A stretch of DNA of 32,000 bases from Acaryochloris marina MBIC11017 (GCF_000018105.1 NC_009925.1:6240001-6272000); one strand, 5' to 3'; numbered from the stretch's first letter, positions 2,791 to 24,897 are shown. A program made the numbers and translations. Notes: generated by a model not told the origin, from the letters alone.

Positions 2791-3597
2791 CTAAGCCGAA
2801 CGAACTTGTCGCGTCATCTTCTTCATAGCGATATTGAGAATTTGCCGAACCCGTTCCCGGCTGATGTCAATTTGCTTGCCAATGGCTCCCATTGACTTGG
2901 GCTGACCATCCGTTAAGCCATACCGCTGATCAACGATGAATCTCTCCCGCTCAGTTAAGTAGGCCATGCACCGGGTTAGAGCATCTTCAATTTCTAACCC
3001 ATCCATGATCGAGAGAGGAGCATCTTCTGTTTGGATTAAATCAATAAGAGCATCTTTCTGTTCAGGACCCACGGGCTGATCGAGAGAAGAAACCGCTTGA
3101 AATGATTGCAGGGTATTCCGAATCAGTGAAGACTTTATGCCAGTCGCTGCTGAGAGTTCTTTGAGGGTGGGAGTACGCCCTTTCTCTTGCGTTAATTGGC
3201 GAACAGCCTTCTTGATCCTGTGGGCGCGTTCCCATTGATGAATAGGGATATAGATCGTGCGGGACTGGGATTTCAGCGCCCGCTTAATCGCCTCTGAAAT
3301 CCACCAATAGGCATAGGTGCTGAACTTACAGCCTTGAGCTAAGTCAAACTTGTCAACAGCAGTATTGAGACCAATGCTGCCCTCTTGGATGAGATCCATC
3401 AGGGGTAAACCGAGATGCTGATGCTTCTTGGCAATGGAGACTACCAGGCGCAGATTACACTCAATCATCCGCTGTTTGGCTTTGAGATCACCAGCTTTAA
3501 CCTGTCGGGCCAGTCTGATTTCTTCTTCATGGGAGAGGAGTGGGTAACGTCCCATCTCCTTCAAATAGGCTTGAACGCTATCGTTCTGAATCGCCAT
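2791..3597 (-). CDS. RNA polymerase sigma-70 family factor (group 2-like, lacks region 1.1)
   Basis: Region 1.2/2: [53 protein letters not shown]. Region 3: IYIPIHQWE. Region 4: [15 protein letters not shown]...ISRERVRQI. Start is taken at the internal Met MAIQNDS (3597). The track ORF extends to 3684. Confidence 0.9.
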
Positions 3598-3651
3598 ACT
3601 TAGGGCTTGCTTCGGAAGTCTAAGTTCCAATATTTGCAGTGTATCCAAGTG

Positions 3652-5383
3652 TTGAGGGCCCTTGAGAAGTGCAAGGAAAATCATTCAAAATATTTAAAAC
3701 CCTTGCACCTGCAACCCGATGTATCGCCGTCCATCCCCCGGTCAACTGTCCTTTGAGAACTTCTACTTGCCCTTTGGAGGGAAACTTTCAGGAGAGAATC
3801 GCTGGGTCAAACTAGCCGAGTTGATTCCTTGGGAGAGCTTTGAGTCAGAATATGCAGACCAATTCAGTCAGACCATGGGGGCACCTGCCAAACCCTTTCG
3901 TGTGGCCTTAGGGACCTTAATCATCAAAGAGAAACTGGGTATATCCGACGCAGAGACCGTAGAACAGATTCGAGAGAACCCCTACTTGCAGTACTTTCTG
4001 GGGTTTAGTGAATATCGAGAGAGTGCTCCGTTTGATGCCTCCATGCTGGTTCACTTTCGCCAACGGTTGAATCTAGAGCTGCTAGCTCAAGTCAATGACG
4101 CAGTCGTGGACTCTGTGCTGGCATCCGAGGGGTCTCCTGTGGCGATGTCCCCTGAGTCATCTCCTCCCTCTGACGATGATGAAGATGAGCCTCCTGCCCC
4201 TCCCAACCAGGGCCAATTGTTGATAGATGCGACCTGTGCACCAGCCGATATTCGCTATCCGACAGACTTGGATTTGCTCAATGATGCCCGCAAAGCAAGC
4301 GAAGCCATCCTCGATGCTTTATATGCTCAAGTCATGCTGTCCCTCAAGTGCAAACCTCGCACCTACCGCCAGAAGGCCCGCAAAGCCTATCTGGCCATTG
4401 CCAAAAAACGTCAACCGAGCCGCAAGCTGATTCGTAAAGGGATTCGTCAGCAGTTGGGCTATGTGCGTCGCAATCTAGCCCATATTGATGGGTTGATAAC
4501 ATTGGGGGCTTCCCTATCCCAATTGTCCCGGCGGCAGTACCGTCTGTTGCTGGTGATTCATGAAGTCTTTCGACAGCAAGAATGGATGTATCAACAGTCA
4601 GTACGTCGAGTGGACGACCGGATTGTCAGTATGAGTCAGCCTCATGTCCGACCGATGGTCCGAGGCAAAGCTGGAACACCCGTTGAGTTTGGAGCCAAGC
4701 TATCCCTCAGTTGTGTGCGTGGATGTGTGTTTCTGGAGCGCTTGAGTTGGGATGCGTTCAATGAATCCCAGCATCTTCAACATCAAGTGGAAGCCTTTCG
4801 TCGTCGCTTTGGCCATTATCCTTTCTCAGTCCATGCTGACCAAATCTATCGGACTCGGGCTAATCGACGATGGTGTAAAGCTCGGGGGATTCGCTTGAGT
4901 GGACCGCCGTTAGGAAGACCTCAACAAGACCCACAAGTACAGACCCAACTCAAGCAACAAGCGTGTGAGGATGAAAAGGTGAGGGTCCAGATTGAGGGTA
5001 AGTTTGGGCAGGCCAAGCGACGGTTTGGCTTGAATCGAGTGATGGCGAAGTTAGCGGATACGGCTGCCAGTGCGATTGCTATCACGTTCTTGGTCATGAA
5101 TCTGGAGCGGTGGCTCAGCCACTTTTTATCGTTCATTTTTGGGGTGGGATTGCTGGTTTTGGAAAGCGTTATGGAGCTGTCAGGACTTCCTTGGGGCTTT
5201 GCTAGGGCCAGTCAAAGGATATGGCTCTGGCCGTCACAAATGGGTTGCTTGTACGATTTGATGCATGGAATTTGCTCAATTTACTTTCTCAGCAAACCCT
5301 ACTTAAATTCCCAAACACCGTTGCTAGAGGAATACCCCACCTATCGGAGAAATGGAATAGCTTATTCGTATTTCTTAAAGTAA
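3652..5383 (+). mobile_element. IS5/IS1182-type insertion sequence (boundaries unresolved)
   Basis: Contains a single DDE transposase gene. I could not find convincing terminal inverted repeats. There is a weak candidate pair at about 3652-3685 and 5183-5215 (roughly two thirds identity by eye). Confidence 0.45.
3719..5383 (+). CDS. IS5-family DDE transposase with InsH-N/DUF772-type N-terminus
   Basis: N-terminus: FRVALGTLIIKEKLGISDAETVEQIRENPYLQYFLGF. DDE region: LLIDATCAPADIRYPTDLDLL, VHADQIY, IEGKFGQAKRRFGL. The last ~55 codons may be read-through beyond the IS end. Confidence 0.85.
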   Translation: MYRRPSPGQLSFENFYLPFGGKLSGENRWVKLAELIPWESFESEYADQFSQTMGAPAKPFRVALGTLIIKEKLGISDAETVEQIRENPYLQYFLGFSEYRESAPFDASMLVHFRQRLNLELLAQVNDAVVDSVLASEGSPVAMSPESSPPSDDDEDEPPAPPNQGQLLIDATCAPADIRYPTDLDLLNDARKASEAILDALYAQVMLSLKCKPRTYRQKARKAYLAIAKKRQPSRKLIRKGIRQQLGYVRRNLAHIDGLITLGASLSQLSRRQYRLLLVIHEVFRQQEWMYQQSVRRVDDRIVSMSQPHVRPMVRGKAGTPVEFGAKLSLSCVRGCVFLERLSWDAFNESQHLQHQVEAFRRRFGHYPFSVHADQIYRTRANRRWCKARGIRLSGPPLGRPQQDPQVQTQLKQQACEDEKVRVQIEGKFGQAKRRFGLNRVMAKLADTAASAIAITFLVMNLERWLSHFLSFIFGVGLLVLESVMELSGLPWGFARASQRIWLWPSQMGCLYDLMHGICSIYFLSKPYLNSQTPLLEEYPTYRRNGIAYSYFLK

Positions 5384-7089: not shown

Positions 7090-7410
7090 TCACTGATCAG
7101 ACCGTCTCAGTAGTCTATCTATGCCCGCCTTGATGGTACGCAGTAAATCGCGGTCCTCATTTCGGCTACTGACTATTGCTGATAGTTGCTGGGTTAGGGA
7201 ATCCATGCGCTGAAATACCTTGTCAGCCAATTTTTTAGTTTCCTCGAAATGTGTCCCCATGGCTTCGATGGAACGGGCATTAGATTGGATGATCTGAGCA
7301 TTAGACTGCACAATTCCTTCAATACGAGATAGACGTTCATTGGAATCAATAATTGAACGTTCTAGTAATGCCTCAATGCGATCTAGCCTATCTGGGCCAT
7401 CAGTAGTCAT
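7090..7410 (-). CDS. Coiled-coil protein with repeats (IVQSNAQIIQSNARSIEAM)
   Basis: Heptad-like repeats run throughout. The start overlaps the upstream stop as ATGA (7407-7410). A decayed paralog lies at 1319-1583. Confidence 0.65.
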   Translation of the reverse strand: MTTDGPDRLDRIEALLERSIIDSNERLSRIEGIVQSNAQIIQSNARSIEAMGTHFEETKKLADKVFQRMDSLTQQLSAIVSSRNEDRDLLRTIKAGIDRLLRRSDQ

Positions 7411-7637
7411 GATTTATCCTCTAGATTTCCCATTAATTCACGCCTTGCAGCTTCAGTAACAACCCGCCGAAGCCATGCAGACCGATCTGGTAAAGCACGA
7501 ACAACCTTATCTACACTCTTCGTCAGACGAAACTGGATATTTCGGTCTGCCAGCTCTTCAATCGTTTCATCAGATCGCTTAAAACGGCTAGACACAAACT
7601 TAGGTGGCATGACCGGATCTGGGTTGCCTTTAGGCAT
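7407..7637 (-). CDS. Small putative ribbon-helix-helix-like DNA-binding protein
   Basis: NIQFRLTKSVDKVVRALPDRSAWLRRVVTEAARREL gives a strand-helix-helix pattern. It is translationally coupled to 7090..7410 and lies next to a repeat-containing divergent intergenic region. Confidence 0.55.
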   Translation of the reverse strand: MPKGNPDPVMPPKFVSSRFKRSDETIEELADRNIQFRLTKSVDKVVRALPDRSAWLRRVVTEAARRELMGNLEDKS

Positions 7638-7693: not shown

Positions 7694-7784
7694 GGCATAA
7701 GTAATAGTTATTGGCCTAGCCACAACGGCATAAATAATATCATAGCAAAACCATTGTATTATGCCTGTGTTAAAGGCATAATAA
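7694..7784. promoter_or_regulatory. Four copies of a GGCATAA(N)TAA motif (candidate operator or iteron set)
   Basis: GGCATAAGTAAT at 7694, GGCATAAATAAT at 7727, GGCATAATAC on the minus strand at 7765-7756, and GGCATAATAAGG at 7775. All lie in the divergent region between 7407..7637 (-) and 7864..8241 (+). Confidence 0.4.
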
Positions 7785-7798
7785 GGTCAGATAAAACA

Positions 7799-7835
7799 AA
7801 GGCATCCGGTCCCGTGGAAAGTTCTCGGATGCCTT
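7799..7835. repeat. Perfect 10-bp inverted repeat AAGGCATCCG / CGGATGCCTT with a 17-nt spacer
   Basis: Read directly from the sequence. It sits 29 nt upstream of the ATG at 7864 and shares the GGCAT core with the repeats above. Confidence 0.6.
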
Positions 7836-7863
7836 AGTCAATACCCAATCACAGGAATCAACT

Positions 7864-8241
7864 ATGCCTACTCTACTCGAAACACCGATTCTTCGCTTTG
7901 GTGTTGAGCGTCAAACCCAGCCTGATATGTGGCTGGTTCAGACTGAAGCTGATGGGATAGCCTTCATTAACGAGCACACCGAAGATCCGCTTTGCCCTCC
8001 CTATACGTTGGCTTGCATTCAGACAAAGGACTGCGGCCCCTTCGATGCTGATATCGATTTTGATGAATATTGGGTGCTGATGGTGACCCGCAAGCCAACC
8101 GCTGACGAGCGCACGACCCAGACCCGGATCGAGAACTGGGTTCTTAATCACCTTGAGCTTAAGGGTGTTCTCAGTGACTGGTTCACCGTGCCCGCCGATC
8201 AGACGGTTCGAGCTGAGAACGATTACGAGGACGAATTTTAA
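7864..8241 (+). CDS. Hypothetical acidic protein (125 aa)
   Basis: AGGA lies about 9 nt upstream of the ATG. The ORF has an acidic C-terminus (ENDYEDEF) and lies immediately upstream of the ArdC-like gene. No family recognised. Confidence 0.55.
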   Translation: MPTLLETPILRFGVERQTQPDMWLVQTEADGIAFINEHTEDPLCPPYTLACIQTKDCGPFDADIDFDEYWVLMVTRKPTADERTTQTRIENWVLNHLELKGVLSDWFTVPADQTVRAENDYEDEF

Positions 8242-8311
8242 AATCGTCCTGGGGCACCTTTGCCCCTCCTACTCCACACATACCCGCTCGCTACAAAAGG
8301 GGATTAATATT

Positions 8312-9181
8312 ATGACCACTCAATCCAAGCGTGAGAAGGCCCAGGCTAAACAACAAGCTGCATTGGAAAAGCTAGAGCAAGGCATCCTGAATATAGCCAG
8401 TGAAGCTGACTGGAGAAAATATCTAGACTTCCATTCCAAGTTCTATAACTACTCTGCCAGTAACACAATGCTCATTTATGGCCAATGTCCCGAGGCCAGC
8501 CACGTAGCAGGATATAAGGCTTGGCAAAAACTTGGGCGACAGGTCCGCAAAGGAGAGAAGGGCCTCGTTATCCTTGCCCCTTGTAAGAAAAAGGTAGAGG
8601 ACAAGGAAACGGGGGAACCAGTTTGGAGAATATACGGTTTCAAAACCTCCACTGTATTCGATATTAGCCAGACTGACGGCGATGACTTAGAGGAAACAGA
8701 TATCAAGGCCCCAACCACAGAGGCCGAGCTGTACCGCAATCTAAAGGCGTTCGGTGAGGCTCAAGGTTTCACAATCCTAGAGAAAGCCTACCCAGGCGCT
8801 TACGGCGTTTGTATCTACAAGCCTAATAGTATTGAGATCCAAGTTGATCCGCTGTTGAGCGTGGAGCTGAGAGCTAGCATCCTTGCCCATGAGTTGGGCC
8901 ATGCCTTAATGCATAGTGCGGCTGAGTATCACGACCACACCCCCACCTCAACCAAAGAACTAGAGGCTGAGTCTGTGGCCTACTGCGTCACCCAATATTT
9001 CGGAGTTGCAGAGGATCAGAAACGCTCCTTTGCTTATATCACCTGTTGGAACCGGGAAAGCGATCAGGCTCTGGGGCAATTCAAAGCATCGATGGATGCG
9101 ATCGCAAAAACAGTCAAGGCAATTATTGAAGGCATTGAAAGCGTTGCCTCCAATGAATCTAGCACTTTAGTAATTGCCTAA
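8312..9181 (+). CDS. ardC: ArdC-like protein: N-terminal ssDNA-binding ArdC-N/DUF1738 domain plus C-terminal HExxH metalloprotease domain
   Basis: YNYSASNTMLIYGQ...GYKAWQKLGRQVRKGEKGLVILAP matches the ArdC-N pattern. LAHELGHALMH is a zincin HExxH. ATG at 8312 follows AAAAGGGGA. The track start at 8153 overlaps the previous gene. Confidence 0.8.
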   Translation: MTTQSKREKAQAKQQAALEKLEQGILNIASEADWRKYLDFHSKFYNYSASNTMLIYGQCPEASHVAGYKAWQKLGRQVRKGEKGLVILAPCKKKVEDKETGEPVWRIYGFKTSTVFDISQTDGDDLEETDIKAPTTEAELYRNLKAFGEAQGFTILEKAYPGAYGVCIYKPNSIEIQVDPLLSVELRASILAHELGHALMHSAAEYHDHTPTSTKELEAESVAYCVTQYFGVAEDQKRSFAYITCWNRESDQALGQFKASMDAIAKTVKAIIEGIESVASNESSTLVIA

Positions 9182-9299
9182 TGACCTGGCTTGGGTGAGC
9201 CATTAATCACCCAACCATTTCAGATTCCAGAGAGATTTTGAAAACTTAGGGGGCAACGATGAACGGTTACACCCTCATCTGGTTCTTGTTTTGGCAATT

Positions 9300-9378
9300 G
9301 GGGTCCGACAACGATTCATGTAAAAACTGATCATAGGGCTGAAAGCTATATCTGATAGCTATTTCAGGCGACGATTTT
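9300..9378. repeat. Tn3-family terminal inverted repeat, tnpA-proximal end
   Basis: GGGGTCCGACAACGATTCATGTAAAAACTGATCATAGGGCTGAAAGCTATATCTGATAGCTATTTCAGGCGACGATTTT matches the reverse complement of 14114-14192 at about 70/79 positions (hand alignment). Confidence 0.9.
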
Positions 9379-9470
9379 AGGGTTTTGGCAAAATACGAAG
9401 TCTATTTCGGTACTGATACCCCATTCTTAAACTCTCTTTCCAACTGACCAACATAGATTTTAACCACCGA

Positions 9471-12400
9471 CTACACCAATATGGGCTCAGCCTCTTGTTC
9501 CTTTTGAGCAATCGGAATTTCGAAATTGATCGGTGGTGGATTGCGCTGTTGATCTAAGAAGAACAGCCCGAACCGATTGAGATGGTCCATCCAATAAGGG
9601 CTCAGTAATGCCAGAACTTCTGCATCATACGTGCGGCCATTTTGGGCTTCCTCATTGAGGATACGACTCATCTCTGAAACGTTGTAGAAAATGAGGCAGT
9701 TGGCCACCAGGTGATTGTATTTGATGCGCTTTCGAAGTTCAGCCCGGTTGTTGCTAGAGAGGACTTGGTTTTCACCGCCAAAAGCGATCCACTTAATAAA
9801 GCGATTAAATGCCTCGCACTTGTTGGTTTCAGCATGGATCGTTTCCTGCATTTGAGGATCGTTGATGTACTGCAGTAAAAAGATAGTTCTCAAGACGCCC
9901 CCAAGTTCATGAAAGGCTTGAAATAGCTTATTCTTACGGCTATTGGTTCCCAACTTTCTCAACAGGGTAGAGGCTTGAACTTTCCCGTCCTTAATGGACA
10001 ACGCCACCCGCAACATGTCCGGCAGGTGCGTCTCAATCAGATCCCAGTCCGTCACTTCGGTGAACAAGCTGTCCAAATGCTTGTAGCGGGTGCCCCGAGA
10101 CGGTCGATAGAACGCTAAGTTCTGCCAACCTCGAATGCGGGGCATTAGCGTAATGCCCAATAAAAATGCCAAGGCAAATACCGTACAGCTTTGGGATTGA
10201 GTATCGCCATGAATCGTGTCCGGTTGGATCTCGGAAGTATTCTTGAGCAATCCATCGAGGATGTAAACGGCTTCCCAAACACCACAGGGAATAAAGTGAC
10301 TGAACAGAGCAATGTAGGTATCGGAGATGTGGTAGTAGCCAATGCCGCCATACCCGCCATAGTGGATGTGATATTCCGCCAATAGATTCTGCTCATACAT
10401 ATCCCACTTGGTACCATCCACAGAAGCCTGTTTGCCGGACCCCCAAACCTTGGGAAGCGAAAAGCGATTGTAGGAATCGATAATCCCAGTAATGGCCTGT
10501 TGTATTTTCTCTTCACTGATATGGCGATGATGAATCCACCAGATTTGGCGACGGTCACTCCCTGGAACTGACCGTGCCAGCTGGTTGGGGCCAATGTTGC
10601 AGCCATAGCAAAATGTCGTGGTGATATAGCGTTCGACCGGATCTATGATCTTGGTATCAAAGCCAGATAGGGGCCCGAAGCACTGGGTCCAGTTGAGCCA
10701 TTTCTCGGTGTCACACAGCACATCCAGAATAGAGACGGGTTTGATCTTCCGTTCAATGAGTGCCTTCACTTCCGCCAATCCTTCAGGTAATTGACGTTGG
10801 CGTTTGTGGATCACCAGGCGGTCTTTTTTGAAACTCAAGTGAGCATTGGTGGGAAAGGCCTGATCTGCCGTCTTAGCCGCCGTTCGCAACCGCTGCTTCA
10901 TCTCTTGAACAAAGGCCTTACCCTCCGTTGGCAGATTGATCATCTTGCCATACTCTTCAGCTGAGTCCTGGTATTCTTCCCAAGAAATCAACTGGCTGTA
11001 ATAGTCCCCAAATTCATTACTGCCAGGAATATACAAATCCCCCGACTGCAGTTCCAGACTGATATGAGAGAACACGCACAACTCAAAGTAAAGGCGATGA
11101 ATTTTAGTGGGCGTAGTCTGTTGCGGGTCAGTGATCAATGACCGCCACTTGTTAGGCACCCAACTGAGATCCAGCAACGGGACAACCGCTTCATCAGGGG
11201 TGCCCTGATTGACGATCTGGGTCATCGGCACCCATTTACTGCGTTTGGACCGATGGGCTTTGATAAATTCAATCGCGTTGATTAAAGACTGGTCCTGGGT
11301 GCTAGAGCACAAGGGAAGTTGCTCTAGGAGTCGGAAGAATACGGCTCGATGGCTACGATAGAAACGAGTCAAAAAAGAGAAGTAGTTGTTGCCCACGTAG
11401 GCTAAGTGCTCTTGGCAATCGTCAATGAGCGGTTGTGGATCATCCCCAATCACAATTTTCATCGACTTGAAGCGTGTGGTGATCCGGCCTTCAGAGTCAT
11501 AGGCCAATAGAACATGCAAGAAGATATCGATGAGTTCATCCGTGCGAGCTTGCGTCCTGCGACGATAGTCACTCAGGGCTTCTGCCCCCTTGTGATGGAG
11601 CTGGCGGTCCCGTTTGATAAACATCTCCGCGAGATCATCCAGGGTGTTGGCATATTGAGTCGATAGCAAGGCCAGGGCTAAGGTATAGCGTTTAGCATCG
11701 CTCATTTCTTTCATGCGAGCGGCATCTAAAGACTGGGCCTCTGCGGCGAGGGCCTTGAGCTTGACGGCGGGAATATCCAGCAAACCGGAATTTGGGATCT
11801 GCAGATCAGCCAACCATTCCAATCGCTCAATCCACTCTTGCAGCCGCGAGAGCAAGGGTTTACCAGGGTCTTCCTTCAAGCGGTTCCACAACGATTTCTC
11901 TGCTAGAGAAGTCGACACAAATAACCGATTCAGCTTCACCCGCTCCGCCCGCTTTAAGGTCTGACTGACTTGTTCATACAGCTGAGTAGATACGGCTTGT
12001 CTGACCTGACGGGCTGCGCGATCTAGGGCAATAAAAGCGGGTAATTCCAATCGATGGCGGACCAATTCTTCAATGGCCACATTGATGAGGTCAGCGAGTT
12101 CATGTTTCGTCACTGCGGCCTTTTCCATGGACTCCTCAATGACCGCTTTGGCTTGAGGGCCATACTTGGTGATTTGTAGATACCCCCGAATAATATTCAG
12201 GTGCCGGTAACGCGTGGGGGAGCAATCATAAGTCGTCAGATCCAATTGGAAACCGTGCAGGCCAACTATAGTGGCGATGTGACGCACAGCAGCAGCGGGC
12301 ACATCACTGGTCTTGATGGCATAGCCCAAGCGCTGATAGGTTTTGAGCATCACCAAAAACCCCAATTGAGTTTGAGGACTACGGGTGAGGTGCTGCGCTA

Positions 12401-12500
12401 GCGCCATTTCCTCTTTAGTGGGAGTGTAGATAGCTGAAAGGTCTTGATCTGAAGGATTCCGTTTCAAACGTGGATAGGCGGTTTCATGTACACTGGCCAC
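9471..12500 (-). CDS. tnpA: Tn3-family transposase (DUF4158 N-terminus plus DDE_Tnp_Tn3)
   Basis: About 1009 aa with Tn3-type N-terminal features (RNPSDQDL...LGFLVMLKTYQRLGY) and a large C-terminal DDE domain. The GTG start at 12500 is preceded by AAGGAG. The track ORF extension to 12677 overlaps the upstream gene. Confidence 0.93.
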   Translation of the reverse strand: MASVHETAYPRLKRNPSDQDLSAIYTPTKEEMALAQHLTRSPQTQLGFLVMLKTYQRLGYAIKTSDVPAAAVRHIATIVGLHGFQLDLTTYDCSPTRYRHLNIIRGYLQITKYGPQAKAVIEESMEKAAVTKHELADLINVAIEELVRHRLELPAFIALDRAARQVRQAVSTQLYEQVSQTLKRAERVKLNRLFVSTSLAEKSLWNRLKEDPGKPLLSRLQEWIERLEWLADLQIPNSGLLDIPAVKLKALAAEAQSLDAARMKEMSDAKRYTLALALLSTQYANTLDDLAEMFIKRDRQLHHKGAEALSDYRRRTQARTDELIDIFLHVLLAYDSEGRITTRFKSMKIVIGDDPQPLIDDCQEHLAYVGNNYFSFLTRFYRSHRAVFFRLLEQLPLCSSTQDQSLINAIEFIKAHRSKRSKWVPMTQIVNQGTPDEAVVPLLDLSWVPNKWRSLITDPQQTTPTKIHRLYFELCVFSHISLELQSGDLYIPGSNEFGDYYSQLISWEEYQDSAEEYGKMINLPTEGKAFVQEMKQRLRTAAKTADQAFPTNAHLSFKKDRLVIHKRQRQLPEGLAEVKALIERKIKPVSILDVLCDTEKWLNWTQCFGPLSGFDTKIIDPVERYITTTFCYGCNIGPNQLARSVPGSDRRQIWWIHHRHISEEKIQQAITGIIDSYNRFSLPKVWGSGKQASVDGTKWDMYEQNLLAEYHIHYGGYGGIGYYHISDTYIALFSHFIPCGVWEAVYILDGLLKNTSEIQPDTIHGDTQSQSCTVFALAFLLGITLMPRIRGWQNLAFYRPSRGTRYKHLDSLFTEVTDWDLIETHLPDMLRVALSIKDGKVQASTLLRKLGTNSRKNKLFQAFHELGGVLRTIFLLQYINDPQMQETIHAETNKCEAFNRFIKWIAFGGENQVLSSNNRAELRKRIKYNHLVANCLIFYNVSEMSRILNEEAQNGRTYDAEVLALLSPYWMDHLNRFGLFFLDQQRNPPPINFEIPIAQKEQEAEPILV

Positions 12501-12504
12501 GACC

Positions 12505-12978
12505 TCAAACTCCTTGGATCTGCTGCTGGGTTTGATAGGGGGTTCCGCAATAGGGGCAAAAACGATGCTTGAGGGAGGTAATGGGTTCTTGGCAGCTGAT
12601 ACAGCGATCTTGTAGTCGAGTGCCGCAAGCAAAACAGTGTTTAGATCTGATGTCCATCCACAGCGGCTCTGGAGCACTGCCTATGCGCCAACACTGGGGG
12701 CAGAATTTCAAAGTTTGCGTGGCTTGGATGGCTCGACCTCGGCTGATGGAATCCAAGTAATCAGGTGGAATTTGTAAGGCACAAGCTAAGCCCTGACGAG
12801 TTTTATGATTGAGGGACAACGTTTTGCCGCGCTCCAGCTTACTCAAGCTTTGGGCATGAATATTGGCCTTGAGAGCGACTTCCTTCTGGGTGAGACCGAG
12901 TCTGACTCGCAGACGGCGAAGATACTCAGCCAAGGATTCATCGGCAAGGGGGAGGGAATCGGATTCTAAAGGTTGCAT
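12505..12978 (-). CDS. XRE-family HTH protein with C-terminal double zinc ribbon
   Basis: HTH: LGLTQKEVALKANIHAQSLSKLERGK. Four CxxC pairs: CPQC, CFAC, CISC, CPYC. Start is taken at MQPLES (12978). Alternative ATGs lie at 13020 and 13086. Confidence 0.7.
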   Translation of the reverse strand: MQPLESDSLPLADESLAEYLRRLRVRLGLTQKEVALKANIHAQSLSKLERGKTLSLNHKTRQGLACALQIPPDYLDSISRGRAIQATQTLKFCPQCWRIGSAPEPLWMDIRSKHCFACGTRLQDRCISCQEPITSLKHRFCPYCGTPYQTQQQIQGV

Positions 12979-13058
12979 GGATTTATCACTGGATATTTCT
13001 TCCCCAGAGGTATAGTGCATGAGGCGAAGTGAGTCTTTAGATTTAAGCAAAGCTCCAG

Positions 13059-13955
13059 ATGAATCAGCCTTTAGCCACCGTGGCAACCCAGTTTTTAGAT
13101 CGCCCCCATCTGGCTACGAGCACAGCCCGCTCCTATGAACTGACCTTGATGCCGTTACTGAAGCGATATGGCAGCTGGTCAGTGGAATTATTAGATGCTG
13201 ACATCCTGTCTGAGTATCTCAATAGCCTGACGCACCTGTCTTACACGACTCACCATCGGCATCAAGCCACCCTCAAGGACTTACTCAACTTTGCTGTGCG
13301 CCAACGGTATATTCGCAGCAATCCCATTGCCCAGTTAGAGCATCGTTCACCGGATAAAGCCAAGGGAGAGCATCTAAGTGATCAGCCCATTCGGTTCTTG
13401 AAACCCGAGCAATTGACCACCCTATATCAAGCTATTTATAACGATGCACGTTTGTATGCACTGGTGAAGCTATTGCATCACAGTGGGGCCCGCATCTCAG
13501 AAATCTTGGCTTTGGATTTAGCAGAAGTCGATCTGGGGCAACGGCAATTTCAGGTCGTGGGTAAAGGCAACAAAACCCGTTGGTGCTTTTACAGTGAAAA
13601 TGCAGCTGCAGCCTTGCAGACCTATATTCAGCACTATCGCTATACGCCTTCGCCAGCATTGTTCACGGCTAGAAAGACCCCTACGAGTCAAGTGACCCGT
13701 CTGAGTTACAGAACAGCCCATCATCACTGGCATCAATCGATTCAAGGCTATCCACAAATCCAAGGGATAAGGTTGCACGATCTGCGTCATACTTTTGCGA
13801 CAGAGCGAGTGGGACTAATGGGGTTGGAGGAACTCAGAGCGTTAATGGGGCACCAGCATATCCAGACCACCCTCCGATATCAGACCGTCACATCTGAACA
13901 AGCAAAAGGGGCAGCGCAAAGAGCATTTCAACATTTAGAAAATGCAGTTCAATAA
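13059..13955 (+). CDS. Tyrosine recombinase/integrase (likely the transposon cointegrate resolvase)
   Basis: N-terminal SAM-like domain, then SGARISEILAL (Arg), LHDLRHTFAT (HxxR) and LMGHQHIQTTLRYQ (His...Tyr). All catalytic residues are present. Confidence 0.9.
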   Translation: MNQPLATVATQFLDRPHLATSTARSYELTLMPLLKRYGSWSVELLDADILSEYLNSLTHLSYTTHHRHQATLKDLLNFAVRQRYIRSNPIAQLEHRSPDKAKGEHLSDQPIRFLKPEQLTTLYQAIYNDARLYALVKLLHHSGARISEILALDLAEVDLGQRQFQVVGKGNKTRWCFYSENAAAALQTYIQHYRYTPSPALFTARKTPTSQVTRLSYRTAHHHWHQSIQGYPQIQGIRLHDLRHTFATERVGLMGLEELRALMGHQHIQTTLRYQTVTSEQAKGAAQRAFQHLENAVQ

Positions 13956-14113
13956 TGATGTTCTCAAGAAGATGACGTGGGTAGGTTAGAATTGACCATC
14001 TTACCGAACACATTGGAGATCTCTCAGAGTATTGAAACTACTCTGCAATCAAACAGTGAGTTTAAAAACGGGTCCAAAACAACGATATGAACTTCTACCT
14101 CACCTCAAAACAC

Positions 14114-14192
14114 AAAATCACCGACTGAAATGGCTATCAGATATAGCTTTCAGCCCTATGATCAGTTTTTGTACGAATCGTTGTCATACCCC
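14114..14192. repeat. Tn3-family terminal inverted repeat, recombinase-proximal end
   Basis: The reverse complement reads GGGGTATGACAACGATTCGTACAAAAACTGATCATAGGGCTGAAAGCTATATCTGATAGCCATTTCAGTCGGTGATTTT. Confidence 0.9.
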
Positions 14193-14609
14193 TTCGGATT
14201 GCTAACCCTGGAAGCGACGGGTCTAGAACAGCGAAAAACTAATAAGGCCAAATGCTCTCCCCTAAAAGAGGCTGTATTCAAAGTGCTTAAGCAGGTAGCA
14301 GGCCAAGACATTTTGATGATCGTTGCCCTAAACGAACTGATGGATCAACTCACGGTCACTCGCATCAATAGCTGGGAGACCTTCTTTAAGCAACTTGCCA
14401 TTAAGCGAACTGAACTGGAATCTCTGGCCGATACCGTGTATGAACTCTCGGGGGTTTCTCCTGGGGCGGTTGAAGACCTCGACGCTGTGATTGTGCCCCT
14501 CTACAACGAAGCAAAAGGCCAAGACATCAAAGCGATTAACTGGGAACGTCGCTCTTGGTGGGACTGGGCACACAACCATTTGCTTGAGCAGGTTAGCAAA
14601 GCAGCTTAA
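14193..14609 (+). CDS. Hypothetical protein with unresolved 5' end
   Basis: The track ORF 14130..14609 has its only ATG and first 21 codons inside the Tn3 inverted repeat. The native start is therefore lost or is a non-ATG codon downstream. No family recognised. Confidence 0.4.
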   Translation, partial: FGLLTLEATGLEQRKTNKAKCSPLKEAVFKVLKQVAGQDILMIVALNELMDQLTVTRINSWETFFKQLAIKRTELESLADTVYELSGVSPGAVEDLDAVIVPLYNEAKGQDIKAINWERRSWWDWAHNHLLEQVSKAA

Positions 14610-14700
14610 CCCTCTCCCCCTGTCTGTACCTGGGTCAGCCCTGTGGCGATCCCCCCCAGCAATCGGGGCTGGCCTTTCCTCACCACTTTTGGAGAAAACC

Positions 14701-15081
14701 ATGCAAGCCCATCACCTTAATTTGCCAGAATTTCTACTCAACCCGCCTACGGTTAACCTCGCCTATTCTCCGGTGGCAGTCATGACGGTAGCAACGGCAA
14801 AAAACCTGATGCAATCCCAGGAGTTATTGCTCAGTGGTGCCCAGAAACTGTTTAATCCAGCGGTCTGGCCCCAGCTAGAACCAGAGATTGAGCGCATTCC
14901 CTTTGACCGACAAAAAGCCCAGTGCTTCCGTGATTGTGTCGCCTATCTGATGGCCGAGGCGACGACGCTGAGATCGGAACGGCGGCATGTCGATGCCCTC
15001 AAACATATGGAGACGGCACTGATGCTAGAGGCACTGATCCATGGCGGCTATGTCGATGTGCCATCCATTTCAGAACAGTAA
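14701..15081 (+). CDS. Hypothetical protein (126 aa)
   Basis: ATG at 14701 is preceded by GGAGAAAACC. The longer track ORF from 14491 overlaps the previous gene. No family recognised. Confidence 0.55.
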   Translation: MQAHHLNLPEFLLNPPTVNLAYSPVAVMTVATAKNLMQSQELLLSGAQKLFNPAVWPQLEPEIERIPFDRQKAQCFRDCVAYLMAEATTLRSERRHVDALKHMETALMLEALIHGGYVDVPSISEQ

Positions 15082-15154
15082 AAGGCATCGCCAAGCTCAG
15101 GACAAGTCAAACGATGCCTTTTATTGAACGAACCATTCAACGAGGTTATTCAAA

Positions 15155-15487
15155 ATGAATCATACAACTCTTCCCCGACTAGTTATCGACAGCATTGCTC
15201 TGCCTTCCTACGAACTCCATGCCAGACCGACTGGTGAGAACGACCGCAAGCTCAATGTCTTTTTCGGCAGTCGGTTGATCGGGTATGTCTACATCAACTT
15301 TATCCAGGGTCAATCCAATTACGTCGGCACCACGCTCAGACATCAGTCCTTCGGCCCTTATTCTCGCAGGATGGAAGCCGCTGAGGCTGTCTTAGAAGCG
15401 TTCAATGCAGGACTCACGGATGAGCAACGGCTGAGGGTCGCTCTTGCTCATGAGATGGCCGAGAACATGACCGTCATTGCTTGCTAA
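15155..15487 (+). CDS. Hypothetical protein (110 aa)
   Basis: GAGG lies about 10 nt upstream of the ATG. Same strand and tight spacing with its neighbours. No family recognised. Confidence 0.55.
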   Translation: MNHTTLPRLVIDSIALPSYELHARPTGENDRKLNVFFGSRLIGYVYINFIQGQSNYVGTTLRHQSFGPYSRRMEAAEAVLEAFNAGLTDEQRLRVALAHEMAENMTVIAC

Positions 15488-15519
15488 TCCCCAACAGCTA
15501 GAGATTTGGAGTATTCATC

Positions 15520-15930
15520 ATGCCCACTATCCACATTGCCAATCTGAGAAAGTCCCGGCAGCTTCAACCCGGTGTTCGATGTGATCGGGGGACTCCTTTA
15601 GGCAATCCTTTCCATATGTTCGCTGAATCAGAGCGAGATCGCTGCATTGCGGCTTTCCGAGTCTTCTTGTATGAGGTTGCCATTCTGGGAAATGAACCTA
15701 GCCAAGACTTGATTCGCAGGATTGCTGAGCAGCACAAGATTATGCCCAGCGGTAGTTATAAACCATTCGGTCGAGGTGCAATGATGGCAGCGCTGGAGGC
15801 GCTGGGCCAGAAGTCTGAAGTAACGTTGCTGGGCTGGTGTCATCCCAAACCCTGTCACTGTGATGTGATCAAGGCTTTCCTTGATTGGAAGTGCCCAACC
15901 CCCCAGCAGCAAACATTGGAGGTTCTGTGA
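15520..15930 (+). CDS. DUF4326-like protein
   Basis: CDRGTPLGNPF near the N-terminus and LLGWCHPKPCHCDVIKAFL near the C-terminus match my recollection of the DUF4326 pattern. GGAG lies upstream of the ATG. Confidence 0.65.
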   Translation: MPTIHIANLRKSRQLQPGVRCDRGTPLGNPFHMFAESERDRCIAAFRVFLYEVAILGNEPSQDLIRRIAEQHKIMPSGSYKPFGRGAMMAALEALGQKSEVTLLGWCHPKPCHCDVIKAFLDWKCPTPQQQTLEVL

Positions 15931-16316
15931 TGCCGATGATTCGGGCACGATACCCCGATAACTGGGATGAGATTGCGTTGCAGGTCAAGGATGCGGCTGA
16001 CTGGTGCTGTACTGAGTGCGGTAAACCCTGTCGAAAGCCGGGGGTTGAGTGGCTACACTTCTCTTTCTGGCTGATGATTACCCACCCTGAATGGTTCCCG
16101 ATCACTTCAGAGAGGGAGGAACAGAAGCCTCAGCGATTCACTCTCACAGTGGCGCACCTTGACCAAGATCCGCAGAATAATCACCCAGACAATCTCAAGG
16201 CCCTGTGTGCGCCGTGCCATTTGAAATTTGATGCGCCATTCCGAAAAGCCAATGCTTTCACCAAGCGGGAGTGGTTTGGACAGATGAAGTTGGAGGATTT
16301 GACCAATGAAACGTAA
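15930..16316 (+). CDS. HNH endonuclease
   Basis: CTECGKPC ... LTVAHLDQDPQNNHPDNLKALCAPCHLKFD is the HNH/zinc-finger signature. The ATG overlaps the DUF4326 stop (TGATG). Confidence 0.85.
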   Translation: MPMIRARYPDNWDEIALQVKDAADWCCTECGKPCRKPGVEWLHFSFWLMITHPEWFPITSEREEQKPQRFTLTVAHLDQDPQNNHPDNLKALCAPCHLKFDAPFRKANAFTKREWFGQMKLEDLTNET

Positions 16317-16348
16317 AAGGGCATATTGAATTGCTGAAATACCTGAGC

Positions 16349-16666
16349 TTAAGAATCAAACTTCATCCAGCCAAGACATAGCTTTTTCATACAATTCCCC
16401 CAAACTAGCAAGCCAATACCCATCCACTCGACTTTTTTACCGTCAATAAAACCACCATCTCTAAGGTTAATACCGGCATTCCAATCAATCGCTAACTCTT
16501 CACGCATTTCATCAGTGACCATTTCATGATCAATGAATTCTTGAGCCATACAATCACACATTTCTGTGGCCATCGAATCACTCATGAATTTTAATGAGTG
16601 ATTCATACAGGATTGGAATAACTTCGACTTCATTGACTGATCGGCAGAAGATGGCGGTTCATTCAT
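16349..16666 (-). CDS. Hypothetical Met/Cys-rich protein (105 aa)
   Basis: ORF only, with 12 Met and 6 Cys in 105 residues. No family recognised. Confidence 0.4.
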   Translation of the reverse strand: MNEPPSSADQSMKSKLFQSCMNHSLKFMSDSMATEMCDCMAQEFIDHEMVTDEMREELAIDWNAGINLRDGGFIDGKKVEWMGIGLLVWGNCMKKLCLGWMKFDS

Positions 16667-16710
16667 TCAATTCATCCTTATGAATGCAACAAGGATTTAG
16701 AGCCCAAAAC

Positions 16711-16915
16711 CTAACTGTACCTGTCGTTCCTTTCTAGCACCTCCTGGAAAGGTTCTGGTTGATCTGATTTTTCTGGACAATATCTTTGATACCCAAAGCG
16801 ATCGCAATGTTGTCCCACCTCCGGTTCCCCTTCTTGATCCACCCTGAGCTTCCCTGCTAAGTCCCCAATCAGCTCCTGACCCCGCTAGCGATGCGGTGAA
16901 GTGACTTCAAACGTG
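16711..16915 (-). pseudogene. 3' fragment of a PD-(D/E)XK nuclease gene paralogous to 20482..21270
   Basis: 16745-16915 aligns by eye with 20525-20700 at roughly 70-75% identity. It translates to ELIGDLAGKLRVDQEGEPEVGQHCDRFGYQRYCPEK, compared with EDMAMKLRCDQEWKPVTGQHCDRCGYQKYCPAK. An in-frame TAG at 16885-16887 interrupts it and nothing homologous lies further upstream. Confidence 0.75.
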
Positions 16916-17186
16916 ATTTTTGGGCCATATCACAAATAAATCAGACTCAATCTTCGAAGGTCCTGGTAATTAGCTCTAAAACCTAAGATCACCCTCTAAA
17001 TCACCGATTATCACGCCTAGCTTGTGATCCAGCTTAGAGAAAATCTTTGACAGAGCCGATAGTTTACTTACAGAGAGAAAAACAAATCCAAAACAAGCAA
17101 TCTAATTCATTAGAAAGTTTGAAATGATTCTCTCTTATCAGTACCGATCAACGTTCATTTTCTTATCAATTGCAGGATAATCCATC

Positions 17187-17498
17187 ATGCTAAAGCCAAT
17201 CAAAGTAACGCTGCTAGGCATTATGGCAGCAACGACAGCAACAATTGCCATCCCCCAAGCAAACGCTTACTCTTCTTTGGTTGGGCAACAGTCTGAAGCC
17301 ATAGAGCAGAATGATAGTTCACTCGTTGCCTCTCATCGCCGTTTCCGCAGAGGTCGTAGAGTTCGACGAATTCGCTGGCGCAGAAAGTGGGTTTGCTATC
17401 GACGCCCCCATGTGTTCTATCGTCATGGACGTAAAATCGTGAAGTTCAAGCGTCATTGCTTCTGGAAAAAGTATCGCCATTCTGGCCATCATTTCTAA
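17187..17498 (+). CDS. Secreted precursor of a hyper-cationic Arg/Lys/His-rich peptide
   Basis: AGGA lies upstream of the ATG. The product has a signal peptide (MLKPIKVTLLGIMAATTATIAIPQANA), an acidic 22-aa segment, then a 54-aa tail with 17 Arg, 6 Lys, 7 His, 2 Cys and no acidic residues. Confidence 0.5.
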   Translation: MLKPIKVTLLGIMAATTATIAIPQANAYSSLVGQQSEAIEQNDSSLVASHRRFRRGRRVRRIRWRRKWVCYRRPHVFYRHGRKIVKFKRHCFWKKYRHSGHHF

Positions 17499-18480
17499 GT
17501 AGATACGGACTGAATTTACACCTTAGCTACGATTAACCCGTACTCCTCCCATATAGCGATCTGTGGACTGATCTAAAGGACTAACCCTGAAAGGGCAGTT
17601 CATCGATTTTGGAGTGAAGATTTTGGATCGCTAGATTGAAGAAACAGGTGGCGGCTATGAACAGAACCAATCAGGACTTTAAAGAATTTCTATGGTCCTT
17701 CATTTGAGTATTCGTTGCTATCCCCCAGTAAGATGAGCGCTCATCGGGTGATACCACTGCTCCAATCCCGTCTCATCCCCCACTACAGGATCAAAGAATG
17801 CACGAATGACTGAAATTATCGTGTATTTGTGCCAGGGGAAACAGCATGTTTGCCACTCTAAATCGGACCGAGCTTGCCGAGGTGGCCGCAATATCCAACT
17901 GTAAGTCTTTGCGACATTGGACTTTAATGATCCTACAAATGAGGTGGTATGAGCCTTGGCTTTCAGTTGTGTTGAGCATTTGAGCTATTCCCCATCACCA
18001 CTGATGATTCATTACGGAAAGTTGGTGGAGTCATCGTCACACAACCATCAACAGTTTGAAGAGAATATCCATATTTCAAAAACCCACCAGAACTCAATCT
18101 TGAGTACGGCATACCCTGTATGGGACTTCGAGCAGTGGTAAAACCTTTATTGCTTTGAATTTTTTTACTGAACTTTCCACTGAATAAATCTGAACTTTTC
18201 AGGATTTTATCTACCAAGAATATTGGCGATATTGAGGGCATCAAAGTTAAAGGAAGCAAGCTAAACCATTATATCTACTGGGTTACTGAGTTTACATCTT
18301 AGTTGTTGCCTCCTGGCAAACAACTCTTACCACCAAGCTTAGCCCTGACTTCAGTACTCAGTACTTACTCATCCAGATAACATTTCTGGTTTTCAAATGG
18401 CAGATGAGAAATGGTCTGCAAGCTTGTCATGCCTAATTTTTGATTTTTCACTCACATGTTGACTCAAATACTAAACTCCG

Positions 18481-19068
18481 ATGCTATTAGAAACATCTTC
18501 TTCAGCTCAAGAAATCATTGTCATCAATCTAGGCTTTGCATTTTGTGGTGGAGCAATAAAATACATTGATGATGCTTTTGATTCTAGTGATCATGGAAAA
18601 ATTTTAGCGATGATTTTTGCTCCAATTACAGGAGTTATATGTTATTTGCTCATAGCAACTGATATTGCAGCAGCGACAATTCTATTAGCTATTATGCTAG
18701 GAGTCGCCCTCAAAGGGAAAATCGATACAGTAGGTCATTTACTAGCATTAGCCATTGTTCTTTTACTTTTATATGTAAATCCTCCTGAAATCATGTTACT
18801 TCCCTGGCTAGTTTTAGGTCTCGCGGGTTTCGCTGATGAAATAGGGAACGATTTTGTTGACTCTCGGCCTAATCTCTTAAAAAGAGCTTCTTTTTGGAGT
18901 GGAACGAAATTCACCTACTTTTTTCTTGAATACCGTTGCTTCATGAAGGTGATGATGATAATTCTCTTCTTTATGAATATATTAAGCTGGCACTATTTAG
19001 TCGCTTTCCTGTTCTTTGATCTTGCATATCATCTTACGGGTACTTGGTCAGAACACTGGATAGCCTAA
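18481..19068 (+). CDS. Polytopic membrane protein with two Asp-rich motifs
   Basis: Five to six hydrophobic segments. Motifs YIDDAFD and FADEIGNDFVD. No family recognised. Confidence 0.55.
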   Translation: MLLETSSSAQEIIVINLGFAFCGGAIKYIDDAFDSSDHGKILAMIFAPITGVICYLLIATDIAAATILLAIMLGVALKGKIDTVGHLLALAIVLLLLYVNPPEIMLLPWLVLGLAGFADEIGNDFVDSRPNLLKRASFWSGTKFTYFFLEYRCFMKVMMIILFFMNILSWHYLVAFLFFDLAYHLTGTWSEHWIA

Positions 19069-19346
19069 GCCAATATTTACTTGGAACATATTTTGTTCCA
19101 GTAAAACTCTAAGTTATGCAATGAGAAGTAAGGACATCTAGAATACCTATTTCTCTAAATGTCCTTTAAAAAAACCGAAGCAACGTGATATTGCATAAAA
19201 GACAATGACAACTATCAAAAAATTAGTTAATACATGAATAAAGACAACTGCAATAGCGAGCTATAAGTCATGCTCAACCATGAAACCTAAAGATAGAAAT
19301 TTGGATTATAAATCTACTTTTTATATCACCAATCACATCATGCTTT

Positions 19347-20291
19347 ATGTCTAGAAATATAACGATTGAAGAGCAAGGTATAAGGTTAAGCATATTGGGC
19401 AACCTCTTCATGGCAGCCCTTGGCCTTTGTTTTGCTAGCTTATCCCACTCAGAAATGATTCTTCTAGATGGAGTATTTTCTTTAATTAATCTAGTTATTG
19501 CTTATCTATCTCTCAAGATATTAAGACGATCCAAACAGTCAAACGATTACTATAATTCTATTCCCTCAATTTATTTTGAACCATTGATAAACTTAGTAAA
19601 AGGCGTCATCTTAACTATTGTCTGCCTCTTAGCTTTTGGGTCTTCAGTAATTATTATCCTAAACGGTGGTCATGCTATATCTACAGGAAAAGCCATTTGG
19701 TATGCACTATTGGCAACATTAGTCTGTATGACTATTGCGCTCAAGCAAAGAAAAAGAGCAAAAGCATGTAATTCTTCACTCATTGAAGTAGATGCCAAAA
19801 GTTGGTTCATCGATGGTTTATTGAGCGGAGTTGTAGTCTTAGTTTTTACAATTGTGTTTTTCTTGCAAAATACAACATTAGCAATATTCTTACCCTACGC
19901 TGATCCTATTCTAGTTATTTTCTTGTGTTTAATAGTAGCTCCTATTCCTGTGGAGATTGTAAAGGAGAACTGGCCTAAATTAGTAGGGGAAAAATATGAT
20001 GTCCAGCTTGAATATAAAATCATTGATATTATAGACAAACATATTCCAAAGACAACAATACAAGACTACTATGTTAGTCATGGATACTTAGGTGATAAGC
20101 TTTACGTGCAATGTCATCTTTTAGTAATTGAAGAAATAAGTCAGAAGTTAAGTTTAGCCGAGCAGGATAAAATTCGTGCTTTTCTTTATCAGAAGCTAAG
20201 AGATGACTTTCCTAGCCTAGCCATTGATATAAATTTCATATGTGATCCAATATGGGTTGAAAGAAGGATATTGCATGTGAGTAAAGCTTGA
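19347..20291 (+). CDS. Cation diffusion facilitator (CDF)-like transporter, divergent
   Basis: Six TM segments plus a C-terminal cytoplasmic domain. CDF-like TM2 (SHSEMILLDGVFSLINL) and TM5 (SSLIEVDAKSWFIDGLLS) patterns are present, but the usual His positions appear substituted. Confidence 0.6.
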   Translation: MSRNITIEEQGIRLSILGNLFMAALGLCFASLSHSEMILLDGVFSLINLVIAYLSLKILRRSKQSNDYYNSIPSIYFEPLINLVKGVILTIVCLLAFGSSVIIILNGGHAISTGKAIWYALLATLVCMTIALKQRKRAKACNSSLIEVDAKSWFIDGLLSGVVVLVFTIVFFLQNTTLAIFLPYADPILVIFLCLIVAPIPVEIVKENWPKLVGEKYDVQLEYKIIDIIDKHIPKTTIQDYYVSHGYLGDKLYVQCHLLVIEEISQKLSLAEQDKIRAFLYQKLRDDFPSLAIDINFICDPIWVERRILHVSKA

Positions 20292-20337
20292 CTGATCCAA
20301 ATATCTTTATAATGAAGTTCTCTAGTATCTCATTGGA

Positions 20338-20465
20338 TAAGTCAAGATATCTCGACCATGAAGCCGGCACACGATGTCCTGGTATCCACTGAATATGTTT
20401 CATCAGAACCCAGCGTTATGCAACCGTGTCAGCAATAAGCATCTGAAACTGTTCGTACTGAAACT
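20338..20465 (-). pseudogene. C-terminal fragment of a tyrosine recombinase gene
   Basis: Minus-strand translation gives FSTNSFRCLLLTRLHNAG, then after a frameshift VLMKHIQWIPGHRVPASWSRYLD (box II-like). The nucleotides resemble 23425-23500 (about 70% by eye). Confidence 0.55.
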
Positions 20466-20481
20466 TATAAATTCAAAAAAA

Positions 20482-24889: not shown

Positions 24890-24897
24890 ACCTTTCC
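24890..24897. repeat. ISL3 target-site duplication, right copy (ACCTTTCC)
   Basis: Identical 8-mer at 23497-23504. Confidence 0.9.

Follow-up and report, generated by a model that had tools for sequence, protein, structure and literature searches.

A 32,000-nucleotide stretch of the Acaryochloris marina MBIC11017 genome (GCF_000018105.1, NC_009925.1:6240001-6272000), hereafter the window, carries between 7.4 and 16.3 kb a same-strand array of small genes that is headed by an acidic open reading frame (ORF) and an ArdC-like gene and interrupted by a Tn3-family transposon. With moderate confidence, we favour the reading that this array derives from a repressor-controlled establishment operon of MOBF megaplasmids, of which it is a partly destroyed copy located in the chromosome. 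The array probably helps incoming plasmid DNA survive.

The array copy in the window is chromosomal and not plasmid-borne. AP026075.1, the 6.4-Mb chromosome of A. marina MBIC10699, matched the window DNA at 99.95-100% in a DNA comparison, with 99.99% of that DNA mapping to it, and the ArdC-like protein had an exact match on the same chromosome in an exact-protein look-up. The initial annotation, made from the sequence alone, had likened the array to a plasmid leading region or anti-defence cargo. As regards the replicon of this copy it was mistaken, whereas for the array family much of it stands: the homologous arrays lie on MOBF plasmids upstream of mobF, and related arrays have ssb or umuD as companions, two genes typical of leading regions (PMC11541004).

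An array family upstream of mobF on Acaryochloris plasmids

DNA searches with the array region returned matches to Acaryochloris plasmids only, and the only plasmids found to carry array genes were MOBF plasmids of Acaryochloris, which are classed as conjugative or mobilizable. The annotated regions of seven of these plasmids were compared; pREC1 and pREC4 are plasmids of MBIC10699, and coordinates in pREC1 and pMB04 are given as L001 and L012, respectively. A common plan emerged, in which one to three divergent small genes, ribbon-helix-helix (RHH)-like by our own reading or annotated as helix-turn-helix (HTH) regulators, are followed by a promoter, a hairpin, the head gene and a swappable second slot that holds an ArdC-like, DUF6876 or DUF3768 gene. 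The body of the array consists of a 33-aa membrane peptide and several orphan genes, and then a translationally coupled DUF4326-HNH-zinc-ribbon trio. The HNH gene of the plasmids overlaps an 86-aa zinc-ribbon gene, behind which stand a 191-aa gene in pREC1 and pREC4 and an AAA_24 (RecA-like) ATPase gene with ssb in pMB04, where the array runs on into this pair (L012 11714-13108). AAA_24 and SSB together resemble a phage-type single-strand annealing/recombination pair. In pREC1 the array is followed downstream by a zeta toxin gene and umuD, and a PD-(D/E)XK gene is present about 4 kb downstream of it. MoxR-type AAA ATPase and VWA genes were observed a few kb upstream of the divergent regulators (L001 2090-7209, L002 3371-5978 and L011 1484-4092); a NACHT gene joins this block in pREC1, and the block is missing from the chromosomal island.

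The arrays lie upstream of the mobF relaxase gene in 7/7 plasmids, at distances of 8-64 kb. In all five Acaryochloris plasmids that carry an ArdC-like gene, it is co-directional with mobF and 11-15 kb upstream of it. The DUF6876-type arrays of pREC4, CP071723 and CP064927 are divergent from mobF and lie 26-27 kb upstream of it; the distance is 56-64 kb in pMB04 and pREC1. We regard the designation "relaxase-proximal establishment operon" as supported. Inspection of the DNA upstream of mobF for an oriT-like inverted repeat located no oriT or nic site, so that "leading region" is inferred from position. An anti-defence role of the array is plausible.

The family can be compared with two known kinds of system. 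Leading-region islands bounded by oriT and umuCD hold SSB and toxin-antitoxin genes (Samuel et al. 2024, PMC11541004); like the Acaryochloris arrays, they are same-strand arrays of small variable genes by the transfer-origin side (for Acaryochloris, the presumed one), with anti-restriction, SSB, toxin-antitoxin and umuD neighbours and with conserved structured DNA between swappable genes. Unlike in those islands, the Acaryochloris hairpins have 8-bp stems downstream of a normal -10 element instead of forming a long promoter-mimicking Frpo, and the array genes are almost all genus-restricted orphans. Frpo/ssi-type single-strand promoters gave no Rfam hit and were judged absent from stem length and position, without comparison to Frpo sequences, and none of the array genes was recognized as psiB, ardA, klcA, acr or a methyltransferase gene. 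The pLS20-type and IncW establishment genes (PMC8708921) likewise have a small repressor gene in divergent orientation, a promoter overlaid by operator repeats and ArdC among the genes under control, but differ in that the Acaryochloris regulation is read from sequence layout. The array family is a genus-restricted example of a known establishment/anti-restriction kind.

The ArdC-like gene and the punctuation of the array

The second gene of the window array, called ArdC-like in the initial annotation, lived up to that name. Its product is predicted to combine an N-domain of the type that binds single-stranded DNA (ssDNA) with a gluzincin (IrrE/M78-like) metalloprotease domain, as Pfam ArdcN (PF08401) matched residues 19-116 with 53.1 bits (cut-off 22.6, 4.8e-14) and Peptidase_M78 scored 30.4 bits (cut-off 22, 3.8e-7), with HELGH at residue 193. 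PHROG 7245 "anti-restriction" matched the protein at 3.2e-18, and the only PDB relatives were the R388 ArdC structures 6I89/6SNA (3.5e-9). The HExxH and ELEAE of the window protein align with HEATH and EELIAE of R388 ArdC, in keeping with the ArdC motif definition of HExxH plus a downstream glutamate helix (PMC7213743). The gene has a ratio of nonsynonymous to synonymous substitution rates (dN/dS) of 0.05 and is missing from all four MBIC10699 plasmids. In PLSDB, 1,799 plasmids carry ArdC-like genes, and some 80% of these plasmids are classed as conjugative or mobilizable. ArdC of R388/pSa (IncW) has the same ArdcN-gluzincin layout and the same motif, and the R388 and Acaryochloris genes are both on MOBF plasmids, upstream of the relaxase gene. 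The window protein is nevertheless distant from R388 ArdC (E 3.5e-9 over aligned residues 66-263), belongs to a cyanobacterial host and is encoded by a chromosomal copy, and its ssDNA binding and anti-restriction are only predicted. R388 ardC points away from oriT; the Acaryochloris plasmid gene points towards mobF.

Alignment of seven array heads revealed in the plasmids a conserved TATAAT, about 20 nt later a hairpin with an 8-bp stem (GGCAYCSS...SSRRTGCC), the box YNAGTTAAAACC and then the head gene, with lineage-specific direct or inverted repeats of operator-like character over the -35/-10 area. One hairpin of this kind stands in the leader of every array head gene. The window hairpin at 7801-7833 has the form GGCATCCG-N17-CGGATGCC, and compensatory changes are seen in the consensus fold: over 14 copies, 92% of the stem cells are paired, three of the eight pairs have changed on both sides and the loop varies in length. 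With this variable loop and these paired changes, the hairpin agrees better with folding of a single strand than with an operator bound by a dimer. No chance matches to it are expected (0), and its fold has a z-score of -2.3. Further members of the GGCAYCSS/SSRRTGCC family were observed, giving in all window 7801-7833 and 15084-15118, L001 6-40 and 11183-11215, and L133 3024 and 8889. The second window hairpin folds with -23.9 kcal/mol (z-score -4.55), is conserved in pREC1, pREC4, S15 unnamed15 and pMB04, and has the appearance of a terminator or attenuator.

The linkers are kept as well. That between the head gene and slot 2 (8242-8311) is retained in 10 arrays whichever gene follows, be it ArdC, DUF6876, DUF3768 or a 93-aa ORF, and both this linker and that at 9182-9258 are conserved across arrays despite differing flanking genes. 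The window array is itself a recombinant: positions 7794-9213 have 80-85% nucleotide identity to pMB08/S15 plasmids, the sequence from 9185 onwards is 95-100% identical to pREC1, and the 29 bp at 9185-9213 common to both parents appear to mark the join within the linker.

Several other identities were considered for the hairpins. Rfam gave no match anywhere in the window, hairpins included, and a stricter leader-hairpin pattern had no match in the JGI metagenome collection; a scan of a genome collection was discarded because the pattern was too degenerate, with at least 119 chance matches in unrelated phyla. An R388-like oriT (IR2 plus nic) was not adopted, the likeness being limited to GGTGC...TTGT; it is also opposed by pREC1, where two copies of the hairpin are separated by 11 kb, and by the third type within the array. 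Integron attC sites were rejected as well, as there is no neighbouring IntI gene and the flanks misfit the GTTRRRY/RYYYAAC cores.

The 76-aa protein encoded divergently from the array is probably an RHH-type repressor of the array promoter. Its positional counterparts are, in pREC1, a 65-aa protein whose sequence we read as RHH-like, in pREC4, a protein annotated as an HTH regulator and, in S15 unnamed15, one annotated as terminase-small-subunit-related. This layout could also be that of a regulatory or DNA-processing module, in which the ArdC-like protein would be an ssDNA-sensing ImmA/IrrE-type protease that cleaves the neighbouring repressor and the downstream genes would serve replication or recombination. 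Such a module would agree with the match of the ArdC-like C-terminal domain to Peptidase_M78/IrrE, with weak matches to models of the spr1629 repressor/antitoxin, RmrA and the CapP protease, with the small repressor-like gene always found divergent from the array, and with HNH, AAA_24 and SSB as DNA-metabolism functions. The protease activity of R388 ArdC is moreover dispensable for anti-restriction, which leaves its role free (PMC7213743). We nevertheless consider this explanation unlikely. Slot 2 is also occupied by DUF6876 or DUF3768 genes lacking a protease domain, with the promoter and repressor layout unchanged, and the switch therefore cannot depend on ArdC; in addition, when the whole protein is compared, it matches best to ArdC itself and to the PHROG "anti-restriction" family.

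Plasmid origin and probable decay of the chromosomal copy

An uninterrupted version of the array, which the initial annotation had suggested looking for, was found on pREC1, where L001 12001-12115 corresponds to window 9185-9299 and L001 12802-14911 to window 14192-16301. The Tn3-family element and its boundaries were correctly recognized at the outset, and its inverted repeats (IRs), which start with GGGGTCCGAC and GGGGTATGAC, agree at 33 of their first 38 positions. The idea of a simple split did not hold, however, as 686 bp of the pREC1 array (L001 12116-12801) are missing from the window at the transposon, and the flanks CAATT and TTCGG form no 5-bp target-site duplication. An adjacent deletion without duplication is the expected trace of intramolecular replicative transposition or of a later adjacent deletion, and the deletion in the window presumably arose in one of these two ways. 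It removed the last 20 codons of the 33-aa ORF, the entire 108-aa gene and the first 79 codons of the 218-aa gene. The small ORF that starts at ATG 9259 and enters the left IR after 13 codons, as first noticed from its preceding AGGGGG, is a real gene. It is conserved at full length in three plasmids (pREC1, pREC4 and S15 unnamed15), where it has a common Shine-Dalgarno sequence and overlaps the gene behind it in ATGA. On the other side, the ORF at 14130-14609 does borrow its first 21 codons from the right IR, and in view of the 79 codons lost in comparison with pREC1 it is a remnant. Its array-derived part is 100% identical to L001 12803-13216. Full-length orthologues of the 218-aa gene are present on five plasmids, and paralogues with 30% identity lie downstream of ArdC, as the next gene in pMB08 and with two genes between in S15 unnamed10. 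As for the element itself, a copy with 88.9% identity was observed on a plasmid of A. marina S15, and pMB04 has part of one, comprising the zinc-ribbon gene and the recombinase. At the right end, plasmid-array homology stops at 16301 and the C-terminal residues of the HNH protein are replaced beyond this point; the downstream genes of the array are accordingly missing from the window.

The array belongs to a larger island. Window positions -5696 to 16301 (negative coordinates denote chromosomal DNA upstream of the window start) are collinear with pREC4 from 151279 down to 124930, and collinearity is seen again at 21415-21716, so that the whole collinear pREC4 span runs from 151279 down to 123448. 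This stretch is the upstream flank of the pREC4 mobF relaxase gene (154605-158534), and the chromosomal homology ends 3.3 kb short of mobF. By this collinearity, the island is a plasmid-derived segment of at least 22 kb that now resides in the chromosome, interrupted by the insertion sequence (IS) ISAcma17, the Tn3-family element and unrelated low-GC DNA at 16301-21415. No tRNA genes were found in the window. Nor were genes for a relaxase, a coupling protein or a type IV secretion system found in a search that covered it together with about 9 kb of upstream and 6.6 kb of downstream flank. As no transfer genes are nearby, the window copy is most likely a relic.

Other parts of the island region were also recorded. 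The IS5-like ISAcma17 at 3597-5305 is 99.9% identical to a pREC1 copy, and the ISL3-like ISAcma10 at 23505-24890 is 100% identical to a plasmid copy in the pREC1/pREC4 comparison; such identities show active movement of IS elements between replicons. An IS630-type (DDE_3) insertion of about 1.14 kb is present in AP026075.1 and missing from the window at about 22001-22003, and this difference is an insertion polymorphism between versions or isolates of one chromosome. The segment at 18000-20300 has a GC content of 0.34-0.37, contains a cation-efflux (CDF) gene and small ORFs and has no plasmid match; it looks like an insertion of other origin within the plasmid-derived island. A Cas4-like PD-(D/E)XK nuclease gene lies alone at 20482-21270 on the minus strand, without CRISPR-Cas neighbours. 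The HNH protein is 89% identical to that of pREC1 and 93% to that of pREC4 (window 15868-16301), in contrast to the nucleotide-identical 14193-15517, and this difference points to recent exchange or gene conversion between chromosome and plasmids, leaving a mosaic.

Instead of decaying, the chromosomal copy might be retained for some benefit to the host, such as protection or assistance in trans of DNA that enters the cell. It still has intact head, ArdC, 126-aa, 110-aa, DUF4326 and HNH ORFs together with the promoter, the hairpin and the divergently encoded small gene, the ArdC-like gene is found on none of the four MBIC10699 plasmids, and R388 ArdC works when expressed in the recipient (PMC7213743). 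Retention is nonetheless improbable, in our judgement, as about 2.5 genes are destroyed and the distal genes lost, the transposon parts the promoter from the downstream genes, and IS elements identical to plasmid copies throughout the island suggest recent arrival. The stretch 14193-15517 is furthermore nucleotide-identical to pREC1 (dS = 0), and the chromosomal copy consequently offers no independent evidence of selection.

Table 1. Features of the window array and of the transposon within it (window coordinates)
Feature	Position	Strand	Remarks
106-aa coiled-coil-like gene	7090-7410		ORF list; after the 76-aa gene
76-aa small gene	7407-7637	-	ORF list; divergent from the array; no Pfam hit
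Array promoter and leader	7711-7866	+	-10-like CATAAT, hairpin 7801-7833, TTAGTCAATACC, ATG
Head gene, acidic, 125 aa	7864-8241	+	pI 4.14; 25 D+E versus 9 K+R
Linker, head gene to slot-2 gene	8242-8311	+	GGGGCA-N4-TGCCCC hairpin and Shine-Dalgarno sequence
ArdC-like gene	8312-9181	+	Likely start ATG 8312; longest ORF from TTG 8153
33-aa hydrophobic (membrane) peptide gene, first 13 codons	9259-9299	+	AGGGGG Shine-Dalgarno sequence; cut by left IR
Tn3-family transposon	9300-14192		86-nt IRs, 86% complementary, both starting GGGG
TnpA, 1068 aa	9471-12677	-	DDE_Tnp_Tn3 PF01526, 9.7e-143
HTH and double-zinc-ribbon protein	12505-13086	-	Cargo of Tn3 element
Tyrosine recombinase	13059-13955	+	Cargo of Tn3 element
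218-aa gene remnant, C-terminal 138 codons	14193-14609	+	ORF from 14130, of which 63 nt (21 codons) are right IR
126-aa protein	14701-15081	+	Probably all-alpha by eye; conserved C..C pair
Second hairpin	15076-15126	+	Stem core GGCATCG/CGATGCC; flanked by A- and T-runs; between 126-aa and 110-aa genes
110-aa protein	15155-15487	+	Predicted beta-sheet, then two helices
DUF4326 protein, 136 aa	15520-15930	+	Pfam PF14216 70.7 bits (cut-off 25), 1.7e-19; PHROG 464 3.1e-17
HNH nuclease, 128 aa	15930-16316	+	PHROG 1571 "HNH endonuclease" 1.7e-19

Orphan proteins, the DUF4326-HNH pair and the role of the array

The head, 126-aa, 110-aa, DUF4326 and HNH ORFs were all recovered on the plus strand where the initial annotation had placed them (Table 1). 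Of the four genes that it had put forward as candidate undescribed anti-defence genes, three are intact and conserved as coding sequence and the one at 14193 is the truncated remnant. Compared with plasmid orthologues, dN/dS is 0.11-0.15 for the head protein and 0.11-0.20 for the C-terminal part of the 218-aa protein; it is 0.14 for the 126-aa protein and 0.14-0.17 for the 110-aa protein. The family alignments have conserved cores and variable ends. The 125-, 126-, 110- and 218-aa ORFs are thus protein-coding and under purifying selection (dN/dS 0.11-0.20). No match to these ORFs was obtained in Pfam, PHROGs, NCBIfam, PADLOC or PDB sequences, and viral contigs contained no relatives of the 125-, 126- and 110-aa families. 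The head, 126-aa and 110-aa families comprise 15, 15 and 14 clusters, respectively, all from Acaryochloris where the source is named, and the unknown ORFs appear to be genus-restricted orphans.

A HMMER profile search of 1.84 billion representatives recovered three true relatives of the head protein; further hits were repeat proteins with a short "DMWLVKTDANG" motif, whose scores were summed over 3-7 stretches, and were judged spurious. The head protein ends in a conserved tail (...RAENDYEDEF), and its relatives always close with several acidic residues in a row and a final Phe or Ile (EDEF, NEEF, AEEF). As an idea only, this tail is reminiscent of DNA mimics or of the C-terminal tip of single-stranded DNA-binding protein (SSB).

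The stop codon of the DUF4326 gene overlaps the start of the HNH gene (TGATG). DUF4326 has been predicted to be rhodanese-phosphatase-like and to act on ADP-ribose-derived phosphates in virus-host conflicts (PMC9503650, PMC7824862). The window protein resembles the phage and giant-virus DUF4326 proteins in its strong Pfam domain and in having nucleases and functions related to restriction-modification as neighbours, which fits the predictions of PMC7824862 and PMC9503650, and differs from them as a stand-alone protein of 136 aa that lacks a Macro, SLOG or NADAR fusion and is coupled to an HNH gene. The HNH protein (dN/dS 0.07-0.08) scored 17.6 bits with Pfam HNH_3, under the cut-off of 24.8, and contains CTEC...VAHLDQDPQNNHPDNLKALCAPCH, which completes the zinc-binding beta-beta-alpha-metal motif CxxC...H-N-N...CxxCH. 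It also matched the HNH domain of PADLOC ZorE at 1.1e-11, at domain level only. A host defence island, in which the HNH nuclease, the nearby PD-(D/E)XK nuclease at 20482-21270 and partners would protect cell or plasmid from phages, could draw on this ZorE likeness, on that Cas4-like gene and on the MoxR-VWA, NACHT and caspase/WD40 genes adjoining the plasmid copies, but is very improbable given that PADLOC found single-domain matches only, with no complete system and no other Zorya component, that the HNH protein is just 128 aa long without a sensor partner, and that the literature ties ArdC and DUF4326 to counter-defence.

Returning to the establishment operon, its action can be pictured as follows. 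The divergent small gene would encode the repressor of the array, and a plasmid entering a repressor-free cell would cause the operon to fire. ArdC would then bind the incoming DNA and blunt type I restriction, like R388 ArdC, DUF4326 might remove ADP-ribose-derived signals or modifications, and the HNH nuclease, with the ATPase and SSB where present, might process DNA. The acidic head protein and the other orphans may act on host defence or DNA-handling proteins. The chromosomal copy arrived in the plasmid segment of at least 22 kb, and then suffered the Tn3 element with its 686-bp deletion and the loss of its distal end at 16301.

Several points weigh against this reading. Besides the failure to locate oriT or nic, the ArdC-led arrays are co-directional with mobF and the DUF6876-type arrays divergent, and with two orientations both array types cannot use the transferred strand as template. 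To our knowledge, none of these plasmids has ever been shown to conjugate. That the 76-aa ORF encodes a repressor is taken solely from a reading of its sequence pattern, and the nucleotide identity of 14193-15517 to pREC1 has the consequence for selection given above. The unknown ORFs had no likeness to known anti-defence families (ArdA, Ocr, KlcA and others), and the AF2 models of the 125-aa and 110-aa proteins are unusable, with pLDDT of 40 (from a 15-sequence alignment) and 47 (46.6), respectively. The remote-homology searches and structure predictions suggested in the initial annotation hence gave no link to any known anti-defence protein.

A bolder extension may be sketched, which we hold to be possible but doubtful. 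The modular, hairpin-punctuated establishment operon might be of a kind not described before, its structured linkers permitting gene swaps by recombination, and its orphans, namely the head protein with its SSB-tail-like C-terminus, the 33-aa peptide and the 108-, 218-, 126- and 110-aa proteins, might be new cyanobacterial anti-defence or DNA-establishment factors.

How large cyanobacterial plasmids establish themselves and evade restriction is barely understood, and cyanobacteria are notoriously rich in restriction systems. The conserved, relaxase-proximal, repressor-type operon led by ArdC provides a short list of candidate genes, and the array could aid the construction of vectors that can be transferred into Acaryochloris. 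Within the array family, it is the conserved linkers with their hairpins and the orphan genes that merit closer study, and the window copy mainly records plasmid-to-chromosome transfer, recombination at conserved linkers and transposon-driven decay.

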